Shown: positions 13,138 to 19,083, counted from the stretch's first letter. The stretch: 64,000 nt of DNA from Escherichia coli (GCF_045037415.1 NZ_CP173438.1); one strand, 5' to 3'. Made by a program: numbers and translations. Notes: generated from the sequence alone by a model not told the origin.

Positions 13138-13151
13138 TTGATAACGATCAA
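13138..13151 (+). promoter_or_regulatory. FNR box upstream of ydhY
   Basis: ttgataacgatcaa is a perfect TTGAT-N4-ATCAA FNR/CRP-family palindrome, about 200 bp upstream of ydhY; the ydhYVWXUT operon is reported to be FNR-activated. Confidence 0.6.
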
Positions 13152-13352
13152 TGTTAAGAGCCCAGAATAATCACATTATTTTTTCTCCTAACCATAAAGG
13201 ATTAGTTTGTTAGCGTTAAATCTTTTCTCATACACTATCGGGTTAGGGAAAATATCTGGTGTTGAGGACAGCGTCAGCAGCGTATTAGTTGAGTGCTTAA
13301 TATCAGGCTGTTGAATTGTCAGCACTGTGTTTGCGAAGAGGATGCGAAATAA

Positions 13353-13979
13353 ATGAACCCGGTTGATCGTCCACTATTAAATATTGGCTTAACGCGATTA
13401 GAATTCTTGCGTATATCAGGAAAAGGCCTTGCTGGTTTAACAATTGCCCCTGCTTTACTGTCACTTTTGGGTTGCAAACAGGAAGATATTGATAGCGGCA
13501 CAGTAGGGTTGATAAATACACCCAAAGGGGTGCTGGTGACCCAACGTGCGCGATGCACGGGTTGCCACCGCTGTGAAATCTCTTGTACCAACTTCAACGA
13601 TGGCTCAGTAGGGACATTCTTCTCCCGTATCAAAATCCATCGCAATTATTTCTTTGGCGACAACGGGGTTGGCTCTGGCGGTGGCCTGTATGGCGATCTC
13701 AACTATACCGCGGATACCTGCCGTCAATGCAAAGAGTCGCAATGCATGAACGTCTGCCCGATTGGTGCGATTACCTGGCAGCAGAAAGAAGGCTGTATTA
13801 CCGTCGATCATAAACGTTGTATTGGCTGTAGCGCCTGTACTACGGCATGCCCGTGGATGATGGCCACCGTAAATACCGAAAGTAAAAAATCCTCGAAATG
13901 TGTGTTATGCGGTGAATGCGCAAACGCCTGCCCAACAGGGGCGTTAAAAATTATCGAGTGGAAAGATATTACTGTGTGA
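13353..13979 (+). CDS. ydhY: 4Fe-4S ferredoxin-like protein YdhY
   Basis: 208 aa with multiple CxxCxxCxxxCP motifs. Confidence 0.92.
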   Translation: MNPVDRPLLNIGLTRLEFLRISGKGLAGLTIAPALLSLLGCKQEDIDSGTVGLINTPKGVLVTQRARCTGCHRCEISCTNFNDGSVGTFFSRIKIHRNYFFGDNGVGSGGGLYGDLNYTADTCRQCKESQCMNVCPIGAITWQQKEGCITVDHKRCIGCSACTTACPWMMATVNTESKKSSKCVLCGECANACPTGALKIIEWKDITV

Positions 13980-13999
13980 ATCTTGCAAAGGAAAAAATC

Positions 14000-16816: not shown

Positions 16817-17485
16817 ATGTCCTTCACTCGACGCAAATTTGTTCTGGGGATGGGAACAGTAATCTTTTTTACTGGTTCTGCGTCTTCTCTGTTAGCGAAT
16901 ACGAGGCAAGAAAAGGAAGTTCGGTATGCCATGATTCATGACGAGTCACGGTGCAATGGCTGTAATATCTGCGCCCGCGCATGCCGTAAAACTAACCACG
17001 TCCCCGCTCAGGGAAGCCGTTTATCGATAGCACACATTCCAGTCATCGATAACGACAATGGAACGCAGTATCACTTTTTTCGTCAGTCATGTCAGCACTG
17101 CGAAGATGCTCCTTGCATCGACGTTTGCCCGACAGGGGCGTCGTGGCGTGATGAGCAGGGGATCGTGCGGGTAGAAAAATCGCAGTGCATCGGCTGCAGT
17201 TATTGCATTGGCGTTTGCCCGTACCAGGTTCGCTACCTTAACCCTGTCACTAAAGTGGCAGATAAATGTGATTTCTGCGCTGAGACCCGACTGGCAAAAG
17301 GCTTTCCGCCCATTTGCGTCAGTGCCTGCCCGGAACACGCATTGATCTTTGGTCACGAAGATAGCCCAGAAATTCAGGCGTGGTTGCAGGAAAATAAATA
17401 CTATCAATATCAGCTACCTGGCGCCGGGAAACCGCATCTGTATCGCCGGTTCGGTCAACATTTGATTAAAAAGGAAAATGTATGA
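16817..17485 (+). CDS. ydhX: 4Fe-4S ferredoxin-like protein YdhX with twin-arginine signal
   Basis: 222 aa from ATG at 16817; N-terminal TRRKFVLG Tat motif; four Cys clusters. Confidence 0.9.
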   Translation: MSFTRRKFVLGMGTVIFFTGSASSLLANTRQEKEVRYAMIHDESRCNGCNICARACRKTNHVPAQGSRLSIAHIPVIDNDNGTQYHFFRQSCQHCEDAPCIDVCPTGASWRDEQGIVRVEKSQCIGCSYCIGVCPYQVRYLNPVTKVADKCDFCAETRLAKGFPPICVSACPEHALIFGHEDSPEIQAWLQENKYYQYQLPGAGKPHLYRRFGQHLIKKENV

Positions 17486-18267
17486 ACCCGTCGCAACATG
17501 CTGAACAGTTTCAGAGCCAGTTGGCGAACTATGTGCCACAGTTCACCCCCCAATTTTGGCCGGTGTGGTTGATCATTGCCGGACTATTGCTGGTTGGGAT
17601 GTGGTTGGTGCTGGGGCTACATGCCTTGCTTCGTGCTCGTGGCGTGAAGAAATCAGCCACCGATCATAGTGAGAGGATTTATCTTTACAGCAAAGCGGTC
17701 AGATTATGGCACTGGTCGAATGCGTTACTCTTTGTATTGTTGCTGGCAAGTGGGCTGATAAATCACTTTGCGCTGGTGGGCGCAACTGCGGTTAAAAGTC
17801 TGGTTGCGGTGCATGAAGTTTGCGGATTTTTGTTACTGGCATGCTGGCTTGGCTTTGTTCTGATCAATGCCGTTGGGGGTAATGGTCACCACTATCGCAT
17901 TCGTCGTCAGGGTTGGCTGGATCGAGCGGCAAAACAAACGCGATTTTATTTGTTTGGCATTATGCAGGGGGAAGAACATCCTTTCCCGGCAACAACCCAG
18001 TCTAAATTTAATCCCTTACAGCAGGTCGCCTATGTTGGTGTCATGTATGGATTGTTGCCATTGTTACTATTGACGGGGCTGCTGTGTCTCTATCCGCAAG
18101 CCGTGGGAGATGTGTTTCCTGGCGTAAGATACTGGTTATTGCAGGCGCATTTTGCTCTGGCATTTATAAGCCTCTTTTTTATCTTCGGTCATCTTTATCT
18201 TTGCACCACGGGGCGTACGCCACACGAAACCTTTAAAAGCATGGTCGATGGCTATCACCGGCACTAA
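17482..18267 (+). CDS. ydhU: PhsC/NrfD-like membrane quinol-interacting subunit YdhU
   Basis: 261 aa polytopic membrane protein; 4-nt overlap with ydhX. Confidence 0.9.
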   Translation: MNPSQHAEQFQSQLANYVPQFTPQFWPVWLIIAGLLLVGMWLVLGLHALLRARGVKKSATDHSERIYLYSKAVRLWHWSNALLFVLLLASGLINHFALVGATAVKSLVAVHEVCGFLLLACWLGFVLINAVGGNGHHYRIRRQGWLDRAAKQTRFYLFGIMQGEEHPFPATTQSKFNPLQQVAYVGVMYGLLPLLLLTGLLCLYPQAVGDVFPGVRYWLLQAHFALAFISLFFIFGHLYLCTTGRTPHETFKSMVDGYHRH

Positions 18268-18270
18268 CGA

Positions 18271-19083
18271 ATGATCATTACACGAGCAGACCTGCGAGAA
18301 TGGCGTATCGGAGCGGTGATGTATCGCTGGTTTCTGCGCCATTTCCCACGTGGCGGTAGTTATGCCGATATTCATCATGCACTGATTGAGGAAGGATATA
18401 CGGACTGGGCGGAGAGTCTGGTTGAGTATGCGTGGAAAAAATGGCTGGCAGATGAAAACTTCGCGCATCAGGAAGTTTCCTCTATGCAAAAACTGGCCAC
18501 AGATCCCGGAGAACGACTATTTTGCAGTCAGTTTGTCCGCAGCGACGATCATGCTCGCCTCGGCTGTTGTGAGGATAACGCCAGAATCGCAACCGCTGGG
18601 TATGCCGCGCAAATTGCCAGTATGGGTTATAGCGTGCGGATTGGAAGTGTCGGCTTTAACAGTCACATTGGCAGCTCCGGTGCACGCGCACGGGTTGCTG
18701 TAACCGGTAATTCTTCGCGGATAAGCAGCGCTGGAGATAGCGGTCGGATTGCGAATACCGGAATGCGAGTACGCGTTTGTACATTGGGTGAACGGTGTCA
18801 TGTCGCCAGTAATGGTGACCTGGTGCAAATCGCCAGCTTTGGCGCAAACGCCAGAATTGCCAACAGCGGCGACAATGTACACATCATTGCCAGTGGTGAA
18901 AATTCAACGGTAGTGAGCACGGGCGTGGTCGACTCAATTATTCTCGGGCCAGGGGGATGCGCCGCACTGGCATATCATGACGGCGAAAGAGTTCGCTTCG
19001 CCGTCGCCATTGAAGGTGAAAACAATATTCGAGCCGGAGTCCGCTATCGTCTTAATGAACAACATCAGTTTGTTGAGTGCTGA
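18271..19083 (+). CDS. ydhT: protein YdhT (function unknown; internal 9-residue repeats)
   Basis: 270 aa; last gene of the ydhYVWXUT cluster. Confidence 0.88.
   Translation: MIITRADLREWRIGAVMYRWFLRHFPRGGSYADIHHALIEEGYTDWAESLVEYAWKKWLADENFAHQEVSSMQKLATDPGERLFCSQFVRSDDHARLGCCEDNARIATAGYAAQIASMGYSVRIGSVGFNSHIGSSGARARVAVTGNSSRISSAGDSGRIANTGMRVRVCTLGERCHVASNGDLVQIASFGANARIANSGDNVHIIASGENSTVVSTGVVDSIILGPGGCAALAYHDGERVRFAVAIEGENNIRAGVRYRLNEQHQFVEC

Follow-up and report, generated by a model that had tools for sequence, protein, structure and literature searches.

The ydhYVWXUT operon is among the last respiratory-type molybdoenzyme systems of Escherichia coli without a known substrate, and it raises the question of what kind of complex its six products form and in which direction electrons pass through it. 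We considered this question in a window of 64,000 nucleotides of E. coli DNA, in which six intact genes occupy the plus strand at 13353-19083 downstream of a perfect FNR palindrome (Table 1). A first-pass annotation of the window had described six intact, co-directional genes at a known locus of unknown substrate, linked to FNR and encoding a periplasm-facing, quinol-linked system. The gene coordinates, the matches of all six genes over the full length of their respective NCBIfam models, the domain results and the literature agree with that description, and neither an activity nor a role in physiology is on record for any Class V WOR (PMC13328260, June 2026). This is a core E. coli operon whose structure, FNR dependence and preference for Mo over W are already published; the finding itself adds nothing to published knowledge and concerns a known open question rather than a discovery.

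The junctions, which had been called tight or overlapping, are so in four cases (+20 nt for ydhY-ydhV, +3 for ydhV-ydhW, -4 for ydhX-ydhU with an ATGA overlap, and +3 for ydhU-ydhT), but ydhW and ydhX are separated by a gap of 63 nt. An Rfam scan of the locus returned no RNA family, and the search for internal terminators gave 12 terminator-like sites, compared with a mean of 7.0 (sd 2.9) in shuffled sequences, all of them short stems and none convincing.

Table 1. Features of the ydhYVWXUT locus, with positions counted from the first nucleotide of the window.
Feature	Position	Strand	Description
Fur-box-like sequence TCAAATGATAATAAATATC	13085-13103	+	weak, putative; 5/19 mismatches to consensus
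FNR palindrome TTGATAACGATCAA	13138-13151	.	perfect; centre 13144.5
NarL/NarP-type 7-2-7 heptamer pair TAACCATAAAGGATTA	13189-13204	.	putative; 2 mismatches to TACYYMT-NN-AKRRGTA
ydhY	13353-13979	+	208-aa ferredoxin (WorS); NF007382, 431 bits, full length
YdhY residues 14-20, T-R-L-E-F-L-R	13392-13412	+	twin-arginine consensus with Leu in place of the second Arg
YdhY Cys41, in lipobox-like L-L-G-C	13473-13475	+	end of h-region; candidate lipidation site
ydhV	14000-16102	+	700-aa AOR/WOR-family pterin subunit (WorL, clade 41), no signal peptide; NF007354, 1374 bits
YdhV C307-x2-C310-x3-C314	14918-14941	+	with C558, predicted [4Fe-4S] ligand set
YdhV Cys336	15005-15007	+	proposed as protein ligand of Mo; counterpart of BamB Cys322; role from PMC12096430
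ydhW	16106-16753	+	acidic (pI 4.4) cytoplasmic tandem winged-helix protein; RefSeq start at 16115
ydhX	16817-17485	+	222-aa PhsB/NrfC-like ferredoxin, predicted Tat-exported; four [4Fe-4S] motifs
YdhX T-R-R-K-F twin-arginine motif	16826-16840	+	[ST]RR[KQE]F in YdhX homologues with readable N-terminus
ydhU	17482-18267	+	PhsC-type cytochrome b, 5 TM-like segments; PF01292; NF011582, 457 bits
ydhT	18271-19083	+	270 aa, no signal peptide; N-terminal helical bundle and right-handed beta-solenoid

The palindrome TTGATAACGATCAA lies exactly where it had been annotated and is the single perfect match to TTGAT-N4-ATCAA in the whole window. When one mismatch is allowed, the 64 kb contain 3 matches against 2.66 expected, and it is the perfect one alone that stands out. 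Other E. coli and three Citrobacter species also have a perfect site at the same distance, 208-238 nt 5' of ydhY. The operon belongs to category 1 of the FNR targets, its site lying at -42.5, based on ChIP-seq binding and FNR-dependent expression profiling (PMC3688515); given that occupancy, the upstream region fits a class II FNR-activated promoter, in which the site is near -41.5/-42.5. If the published position is valid, the centre of the palindrome places the transcription start near 13187, and the heptamer pair, to which NarL or NarP may bind, sits at about +10, just 3' of it. Regulation by NarL/NarP is reported by Partridge 2008, as cited in PMC3141248 and PMC3688515, while a Fur ChIP peak and Fur regulation have been described for the operon, which in strain CFT073 is Fur-regulated and detectably expressed (PMC7157518). 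FNR thus turns the operon on when oxygen is missing, nitrate and nitrite repress it through NarL/NarP, and Fur and sigma-S modulate it.

According to the literature, YdhV is the only AOR-family member in E. coli. It matches AFOR_N (PF02730, E 1e-67) and AFOR_C (PF01314, E 5e-48), both above the gathering scores, as well as the structures 1AOR, 1B25 and 4Z3W. In 21 diverse homologues C307, C310, C314 and C558 do not vary, and the CxxCxxxC motif aligns with 1AOR and 4Z3W; the two domains and this set of [4Fe-4S] cysteines mark YdhV, at the level of sequence, as an AOR/WOR-family pterin subunit. Cys336 is likewise invariant in 21 diverse homologues, and the protein is atypical of the AOR family in having this metal ligand, as in BamB, and in missing the AOR second-shell residues (PMC12096430). 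The Mo versus W analysis that the first-pass annotation proposed has already been published: YdhV binds a redox-active bis-Mo-MPT, with Mo preferred (Reschke 2019, as cited in PMC13328260 and PMC9103625). Isolated YdhV is inactive (PMC9103625), and recombinant CsWOR41L, from the same class, oxidised none of 46 aldehydes (PMC13328260).

The electron-transfer and anchor subunits resemble those of a different enzyme. YdhX carries 16 Cys in four cluster motifs and shares 53% identity over 180 residues with PhsB, for which, as for PhsC, the comparison sequence was taken from a verified sbcB-phsABC-dacD locus. The twin-arginine signal annotated in YdhX is borne out by its MSFTRRKF start and by the conservation of the motif in homologues with a readable N-terminus; the [ST]-R-R-x-F-L-K motif and, after it, an h-region identify MSFTRRKFVLGMGTVIFFTGSASSLLA as its predicted Tat signal. 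YdhX also figures among the predicted Tat substrates of PMC7549933, in which deletion of ydhX left fitness in a mouse model of infection unaffected. YdhU had been described as PhsC/NrfD-like, a wording that joins two unrelated anchor families. The PhsC half of it stands: YdhU shares 56% identity with a genuine PhsC, its sole Pfam match at E <= 0.01 is PF01292 (cytochrome b561/Ni_hydr_CYTB, E 3e-31), it scores 457 bits with NF011582 against a cut-off of 204, and it has four invariant His (H77, H111, H223, H237) and five TM-like segments. The NrfD half does not, being absent from the matches, and a haem-less 8-TM protein of the NrfD/PsrC type (PF03916) is ruled out by the PF01292-only match, the five TM-like segments and the conserved His pairs. 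YdhU is thus predicted to be a dihaem cytochrome b of the PhsC/FdnI type and, paired with a four-cluster ferredoxin near PhsB, to form a PhsBC-type module. We rejected the possibility that the operon encodes a PhsABC thiosulfate reductase, as neither the operon nor the DNA next to it contains a Molybdopterin (PF00384) gene; the RefSeq name 'phsC' for ydhU therefore reflects paralogy, not function.

The phylogenetic distribution of the genes separates this module from the remainder of the operon. YdhY, YdhV and YdhW constitute a core conserved across phyla, found together in most clade-41 loci, over at least seven phyla; YdhX-YdhU are confined to Proteobacteria and YdhT to Enterobacterales. In other genomes the trio is flanked by genes for TatA, TatC, FdhD, MoeA, XdhC-like and MoaA proteins, which speaks for export through Tat of a cargo loaded with its cofactor, and FdhD, the formate-dehydrogenase sulfurtransferase, adjoins it in several phyla. 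Across about 50 clade-41 neighbourhoods the recurrent maturation and export genes also include MobB and Mod/Tup-type ABC transporters; two-component regulators recur too, and an acyl-CoA ligase is present in 5 loci, but the scan gave no clue to the substrate. YdhW is an acidic tandem winged-helix protein and lacks the all-helical TorD fold (PF02613), so that a chaperone of the TorD/NarJ/DmsD kind was rejected, and none of the known chaperones for Tat or cofactors resembles it. Its long homologues were considered as possible informative domain fusions and discarded, since they merely add winged-helix repeats or disordered tails. YdhT, assigned to PF27195 among precomputed Pfam families, gave only generic beta-solenoid matches in a fold search (antifreeze proteins, curli, tailspikes, NosD, SufD), with no specific functional lead, and would be a cytoplasmic beta-solenoid accessory.

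YdhY contains 16 Cys in four CxxCxxCxxxC motifs, which predict four [4Fe-4S] clusters. The first-pass annotation overlooked its signal-like N-terminus, which combines a crippled Tat motif with a lipobox-like Cys; the twin arginine of the Tat consensus is absent from it. The second Arg is lost in all 12 operons that contain YdhX-YdhU (R-L in nine Enterobacterales, R-Q in three other proteobacterial loci), and homologues from operons without YdhX-YdhU have [ST]RRxFLK wherever the N-terminus is readable. The rest of the signal (T, R, F-L-R, the h-region and L-x-G-C) is strongly conserved within Enterobacterales, and L-x-G-C is also kept in Firmicutes, Spirochaetota and Shewanella.

On balance, and with moderate confidence, we favour a reading in which ydhYVWXUT encodes a periplasm-facing, membrane-anchored, menaquinol-linked molybdoenzyme of two modules, probably a nitrate-repressed reductase. 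In the first module, YdhV would be the catalytic subunit (Mo-bis-MPT ligated by Cys336, one [4Fe-4S]) and YdhY its four-cluster ferredoxin partner, and YdhW may serve in the cytoplasm as an assembly or export factor. The second, apparently gained in Proteobacteria, would comprise YdhX, as a Tat-exported ferredoxin paralogous to PhsB, and YdhU, as a dihaem cytochrome b paralogous to PhsC, and would connect the core to the quinone pool. Since YdhV has no signal peptide and the YdhY signal is crippled, both most likely cross the membrane folded, as cargo with YdhX. Electrons would pass from menaquinol to the YdhU haems, YdhX, YdhY, the YdhV Fe-S cluster and Mo, and finally to a periplasmic acceptor; proton motive force could aid the reduction of a low-potential acceptor, as in PhsABC. 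For this direction the model draws on regulation and on the analogy with Phs. Several observations sit uneasily with the model. A chain of nine Fe-S clusters and two haems is unusually long, and YdhW is unlike the chaperones that it would stand in for. Cys41, if lipidated, is followed by a Lys at +2, which implies sorting to the outer membrane and fits poorly with docking on YdhX-YdhU. The inactivity of YdhV alone (PMC9103625), the failure of CsWOR41L with all 46 aldehydes (PMC13328260) and the neutral ydhX deletion (PMC7549933) also count against it.

The same complex might run in reverse, as a periplasmic dehydrogenase that passes electrons from a low-potential donor (an aldehyde or other reduced compound) to menaquinone in a formate-dehydrogenase-N-like redox loop that makes proton motive force. 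We regard this as unlikely, though it retains some real weight: the AOR/WOR family's characterised enzymes are mostly aldehyde oxidisers, PF01292 cytochromes b also anchor FdnGHI and hydrogenases, with YdhU giving weaker matches to the FdnI and HyaC models, and the FdhD neighbours of the core would suit it. Low-hierarchy reductases are typically nitrate-repressed and fdnGHI is nitrate-induced; repression by nitrate and nitrite would be unexpected for an electron-donor dehydrogenase. The nearest anchor paralogues, PhsBC, belong to a reductase, and the aldehyde results with CsWOR41L (PMC13328260), together with the missing second-shell residues of YdhV and its Cys ligand, like that of the reductase BamB (PMC12096430), point the same way.

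The R-L of E. coli YdhY means that its export, and hence the location of YdhV, is not assured. If the signal no longer targets YdhY to Tat, YdhV-YdhY would stay cytoplasmic, and YdhU and YdhX would move electrons between cytoplasmic catalysis and the periplasm or quinone pool. We hold this to be decidedly improbable. The loss of the second Arg in every operon with YdhX-YdhU, the lack of a signal peptide in YdhV, the cytoplasmic nature of YdhW and YdhT, and the absence of YdhY from the portion of the predicted-Tat-substrate table of PMC7549933 consulted here speak for it. The strong conservation of the remainder of the signal, however, argues that it is still used, and a periplasmic YdhX without a periplasmic catalytic partner would have no obvious purpose; proteins of the PhsB/NrfC type usually connect an anchor with an enzyme in the periplasm. 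Riding on the Tat signal of a partner is, moreover, well established for PhsB, DmsB and HybC.

That the operon survives as a poorly expressed relic of evolution, without a present physiological role in E. coli, is very improbable: its expression in MG1655 was below detection under one set of conditions (PMC7157518), the ydhX deletion lacked a phenotype in mice (PMC7549933), and activity has never been measured for its products, but 5425 of 5426 complete E. coli genomes carry the locus (at least 80% of it aligned in 5393), purifying selection acts on all six genes, conservation extends to the FNR site, and expression depends on FNR (PMC3688515) and is detectable and Fur-regulated in CFT073 (PMC7157518). 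The dN/dS values range from 0.02 to 0.10 for five genes with E. albertii as comparator, and ydhY gave 0.024 with Citrobacter; the DNA of the locus studied is 100% identical to that of ST131-type E. coli chromosomes.

Returning to the two-module reductase, a more speculative extension, which we advance tentatively and consider rather unlikely, is that export was rewired when a PhsBC-type module joined an ancestral Tat-exported core. YdhX would then hold the only functional twin-arginine signal, on which YdhX, YdhY and YdhV would cross as one cargo of three proteins, bearing nine Fe-S clusters and Mo-bis-MPT. The YdhY signal, conserved but crippled in its arginine (R-L/R-Q and L-x-G-C), would be put to new use, either as an anchor (membrane or lipid) or as the place where YdhW docks. 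With Cys336 and the FdhD neighbours, Ydh might thus be a Cys-ligated Mo enzyme akin to BamB and formate dehydrogenases, performing low-potential periplasmic reductions assisted by proton motive force, not aldehyde chemistry. The comparative points added here, namely the Y-V-W core, YdhX-YdhU as a PhsBC paralogue, the loss of the second Arg of YdhY in the company of YdhX, and the folds of YdhW and YdhT, favour study of the whole complex over YdhV alone and bring its dependence on Tat, YdhX, proton motive force and FdhD into focus. Common in gut anaerobes, the WOR41/Class V clade accounts for more than 10% of the AOR/WOR family (PMC13328260), and the substrate, once identified, would give E. coli and many gut bacteria a new anaerobic respiratory or detoxification reaction.

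Among known systems, Pyrococcus-type AOR (1AOR) shares with YdhV both Pfam domains and the [4Fe-4S] Cys motif, but aligns well only over the N-terminal domain (about residues 5-218); it is a cytoplasmic, W-dependent enzyme that lacks a Cys ligand and works with soluble ferredoxin. BamB belongs to an adjacent AOR-family clade with the conserved Cys metal ligand and without the aldehyde-oxidase second-shell residues (PMC12096430). It differs in being cytoplasmic and W-dependent, within the bifurcating BamBCDEFGHI complex, and none of its partner genes is found at the ydhYVWXUT locus. Class V WORs (clade 41) are defined by a WorL together with a WorS and one or more further subunits, with a Tat signal or TM segment in WorS; in E. 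coli L, S and further subunits are present, and WorS (YdhY) has T-R-L-E-F-L-R and no strong TM segment. YdhV is 58% identical to its Cetobacterium homologue, and CsWOR41 of Cetobacterium somerae has the same L-S-W gene trio, again with a signal on the S subunit and without a known activity; CsWOR41L prefers W, whereas the E. coli enzyme prefers Mo (PMC13328260), and E. coli has added YdhX, YdhU and YdhT and has R-L for R-R in the S subunit.

FdnGHI resembles the proposed complex in being FNR-dependent and in combining a Mo enzyme of the periplasm with a four-cluster ferredoxin and a membrane-spanning PF01292 dihaem cytochrome b, and in other phyla Y-V-W has FdhD-type sulfuration genes next to it. 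The catalytic subunit of FdnGHI is of the bis-MGD type, the enzyme is induced rather than repressed by nitrate, and FdnH has a C-terminal membrane anchor that YdhX and YdhY lack. PhsABC of Salmonella and Citrobacter differs in its bis-MGD catalytic subunit PhsA, where Ydh has the AOR-family bis-MPT YdhV and the extra four-cluster ferredoxin YdhY, and in that PhsA bears the Tat signal and PhsB none, whereas YdhX has its own. Both systems nevertheless join a four-cluster ferredoxin to a PF01292 dihaem cytochrome b, the phsB/phsC genes overlap by 4 nt as do ydhX/ydhU, and PhsABC, like ydhYVWXUT, is anaerobic and nitrate-repressed.

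Gene calls and the RefSeq annotation of an identical genome place the six ydhYVWXUT genes as listed in the table, with successive junctions of +20, +3, +63, -4 and +3 nt, in the order lpp, pykF, ynhH, fumD, ydhY, ydhV, ydhW, ydhX, "phsC" (ydhU), ydhT and the convergent ydhS. Since all six proteins match NCBIfam models from end to end, all the genes are intact, as the first-pass annotation had read them. The stretch 12900-19100 is 100% identical to several ST131-type genomes, and the locus was found on the chromosome in 5425 of 5426 complete E. coli genomes. In some ST131-type genomes (NZ_CP124487.1 and NZ_CP174273.1, locus matches H4 and H5) an IS1 element falls within the match, which extends over 6977 bp for a query of 6201 bp; matches H1-H3 are split in two and cover 6288 bp, which implies about 87 bp of inserted sequence compared with the window. 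The stops of ydhT and ydhS (19095-20699, - strand) are 11 nt apart (19083-19095), and because no clear intrinsic terminator was seen between them, the 3' end of the operon transcript is probably inside ydhS.

Genes of the ydhYVWXUT operon and sequence features of its upstream region and of the YdhY N-terminus
Feature	Position	Strand	Basis or remark
Weak Fur-box-like sequence	13085-13103		Sequence motif
NarL/NarP-like 7-2-7 pair, TAACCATAAAGGATTA	13189-13204		Sequence motif; centre at about +10
ydhY	13353-13979	+	Gene call and RefSeq annotation of identical genome
YdhY residues 14-20	13392-13412		Tat-like signal with R-L replacing R-R
YdhY Cys41	13473-13475		Lipobox-like L-L-G-C, Lys at +2
ydhV	14000-16102	+	Gene call and RefSeq annotation of identical genome
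ydhW	16106 or 16115-16753	+	Gene call and RefSeq annotation of identical genome
ydhX	16817-17485	+	Gene call and RefSeq annotation of identical genome
ydhU	17482-18267	+	Gene call and RefSeq annotation of identical genome
ydhT	18271-19083	+	Gene call and RefSeq annotation of identical genome

The fumD-ydhY intergenic region (12898-13352, 455 bp) has a GC content of 33%, against 50% for the window; it contains a strong fumD terminator hairpin (12902-12930) and several pairs of sigma-70-like hexamers that precede the FNR site. This site, the perfect palindrome TTGATAACGATCAA, lies exactly at 13138-13151, where it had first been noticed, and is the sole perfect TTGAT-N4-ATCAA within the 64-kb window, in which the one-mismatch pattern is not enriched (3 matches vs 2.66 expected). 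In another E. coli and in three Citrobacter species, ydhY likewise has a perfect FNR site 208-238 nt ahead of it, and an unrelated proteobacterial Y-V-W-X-U locus has an independent one. ChIP-seq and expression profiling have identified the operon as a category 1 FNR target with the site at -42.5 (PMC3688515); taking this position, transcription would start near 13187 and produce a leader of about 166 nt. The NarL/NarP-like pair is placed, judging by the motif, where it would suit repression, and control by NarL/NarP is credited to Partridge et al. 2008 in PMC3141248, PMC3688515 and PMC10845959. The sigma-S holoenzyme transcribes the promoter better in vitro (PMC3141248), and a Fur ChIP peak has been reported at the operon, which is Fur-regulated in CFT073 (PMC7157518).

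YdhV is composed of the Pfam domains AFOR_N and AFOR_C, with homologues of at least 54% identity in Proteobacteria, Firmicutes, Fusobacteria, Spirochaetota and Halanaerobium. Compared with solved structures, it aligns strongly to AOR and FOR in the N-terminal domain only, and its profile alignment to BamB, a related AOR-family enzyme, ends at the residue just before BamB Cys322. The [4Fe-4S] ligands C307, C310, C314 and C558 are invariant among 21 diverse sequences, as is C336, which a 2025 review describes as an extra metal ligand like BamB Cys322, the second-shell residues of aldehyde-oxidising AORs being absent (PMC12096430). The first-pass annotation had proposed comparing Mo and W in YdhV and checking co-transcription. 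Both have already been dealt with in published work; the cofactor bound by YdhV is a redox-active bis-Mo-MPT, with Mo preferred to W (PMC9103625; PMC13328260, summarising Reschke 2019). A June 2026 classification assigns YdhV/YdhY to clade 41 ("Class V") of the AOR/WOR family, regards these proteins as membrane-associated and oriented towards the periplasm, lists no known activity or physiological role for any member, and reports that recombinant CsWOR41L, the Cetobacterium somerae homologue of YdhV, oxidised 0 of 46 aldehydes (PMC13328260). The initial description of a known locus with an unknown substrate agrees with this literature (PMC13328260, PMC9103625).

A scan of species-representative genomes with a YdhV alignment yielded 80 loci, of which about 48, at 41% identity or above, fall in the YdhV clade. 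Most YdhV-clade loci carry ydhY, ydhV and ydhW together, across Proteobacteria, Firmicutes, Spirochaetota, Coriobacteriia, Chloroflexi, Desulfobacterota and Nitrospirota; in a few, one member is absent or past the contig end. In the same scan ydhX-ydhU-ydhT were confined to Enterobacterales, and three further metagenome or genome contigs (YdhV 68-78% identical), two of them alphaproteobacterial (Telmatospirillum and Rhodospirillaceae), have Y-V-W-X-U without T. By this phyletic spread the operon is layered: X-U was added to a universal Y-V-W core in Proteobacteria, and T in Enterobacterales. In three loci from Desulfobacterota or Nitrospirota, X is missing and a cytochrome b separates Y from V. 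Elsewhere the core has neighbours (TatA/TatC, FdhD, MoeA, XdhC-like, MoaA, MoaC, MobB and molybdate/tungstate-type ABC genes) that serve maturation and export and give no hint of the substrate, and nothing computed in this analysis identifies one.

Outside Proteobacteria, the sulfurtransferase gene fdhD often lies beside the core with tatA/tatC, moeA-like and xdhC-like genes (loci L012, L017, L028, L035, L043 and L083, also L010, L040 and L045); these family names were assigned by sequence inspection, except for FdhD in L083, which is a Pfam match. By analogy with formate dehydrogenases, the association with fdhD may point to a metal-bound sulfido ligand. In Citrobacter (L003-L005), a cluster about 1-9 kb upstream of ydhY encodes proteins of 1021 aa, 340 aa, 255 aa (a YdhX-like ferredoxin) and 593 aa and a response regulator, which by gene size look like a ttrACB and ttrSR tetrathionate reductase candidate. 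In Coriobacteriia (L014, L015, L019-L026 and L047) ydhY and ydhV are divergently oriented, and about 4 kb upstream stands a Mo-bisMGD enzyme of about 744 aa that has a Tat signal and is accompanied by a YdhX-like ferredoxin; the YdhW homologues of these loci are long and carry disordered N-terminal extensions.

YdhW had no match in the local Pfam copy and is assigned to PF27264 (YdhW_C) in precomputed annotation. It is acidic (pI 4.4), has neither a signal peptide nor a conserved Cys, and is predicted (pLDDT 92) to form two tandem winged-helix repeats, longer homologues simply having three or four of them; it may be a cytoplasmic assembly or export factor for the core. YdhT, possibly an Enterobacterales-specific accessory, is predicted (pLDDT 92) to combine a helical bundle (1-77) with a right-handed beta-solenoid (85-270), and its structural search gave generic matches only.

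YdhY and YdhX have 16 Cys each, in four CxxCxxCxxxC-type motifs that indicate four [4Fe-4S] clusters per protein. YdhU, whose sole Pfam match is PF01292 and which contains four invariant His and five TM-like segments, is thus a dihaem cytochrome b of the FdnI/HyaC/PhsC type; of its first description as "PhsC/NrfD-like", the PhsC part stands and the NrfD-type anchor is rejected. The arrangement to which we give somewhat better than an even chance is that YdhV would be a periplasm-facing Mo-bis-MPT catalytic subunit, wired via YdhY and YdhX to YdhU and so to menaquinol. Flow in the reductase direction is favoured because nitrate and nitrite repress the operon, because its anchor module has a paralogue in the reductase Phs (PhsABC thiosulfate reductase), and because the metal site of YdhV resembles that of the reductase BamB. 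Stoffels et al., in 2012, are said to have found that Phs uses proton motive force for low-potential reduction. A dehydrogenase direction like that of Fdn-N seems unlikely, if far from negligible.

The N-terminus of YdhY bears on another arrangement, in which YdhV-YdhY would be cytoplasmic and connected through a transmembrane wire. Where X-U is missing, YdhY homologues with a readable N-terminus carry the canonical [ST]-R-R-x-F-L-K, followed in many lineages by an h-region ending L-x-G-C. The motif is T/S-R-L-E/D-F-L-R in 9/9 Enterobacterales loci and T-R-Q-E-F-L-R in the three other X-U-containing loci, so that the second arginine is absent in 12/12 YdhX-YdhU operons, exactly where the Tat-signal-bearing YdhX occurs. 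All twelve belong to a single YdhV subclade, so the loss counts as one or two events in evolution and not as twelve. Natural K-R variants of the twin-arginine motif are known, but uncharged replacements generally block export. Within Enterobacterales the remainder of the signal shows strong conservation that speaks for its continued use, and the h-region is too weakly hydrophobic to qualify as a TM helix; we regard the cytoplasmic arrangement as improbable. By the classical rule, a Lys at +2 sends a lipoprotein to the outer membrane, a sorting that, for a putatively lipidated YdhY, fits poorly with the membrane-complex model that we prefer.

Purifying selection maintains all six genes, with dN/dS values against Escherichia albertii of 0.017 (ydhV), 0.036 (ydhX), 0.063 (ydhT), 0.070 (ydhU) and 0.095 (ydhW), and against Citrobacter of 0.024 (ydhY); a relic operon without a present role is hardly credible beside these values. 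Evolution is much faster in ydhW and ydhT (62-66% protein identity to Citrobacter) than in ydhY and ydhV (92%). In a transposon screen, insertions in ydhU were reported to raise fitness under 10 of 12 chemical stress conditions (PMC5064937), and deletion of ydhX had no effect in mouse systemic infection competition (PMC7549933). The first-pass annotation correctly described a known and incompletely characterised operon, without making the long-standing question that it poses more testable than published work does; what the present comparison adds amounts to incremental leads.

In Citrobacter, Proteus and Edwardsiella the YdhU homologues form two groups, orthologues at about 74-80% identity and a second set at about 52-57%; the locus of one second-set member (L085, 2138-5768, Citrobacter-type) reads sbcB, phsA (Mo-bisMGD, 757 aa), phsB (192 aa), phsC (255 aa) and dacD. 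The X-U module is a PhsBC paralogue, and the PGAP/RefSeq name "phsC" for ydhU reflects this paralogy and is over-specific. The E. coli ydh locus contains no phsA or phsB, and without a PhsA-type gene the system does not belong to the thiosulfate reductases. Identity to the sbcB-phsABC-dacD locus is 56% between YdhU and PhsC and 53% between YdhX and PhsB, and the phsB/phsC pair overlaps by the same 4 nt as ydhX/ydhU; the two systems differ in that the twin-arginine signal of Phs is on PhsA (SRRNFLRG), with none on PhsB, whereas YdhX bears its own (TRRKF).
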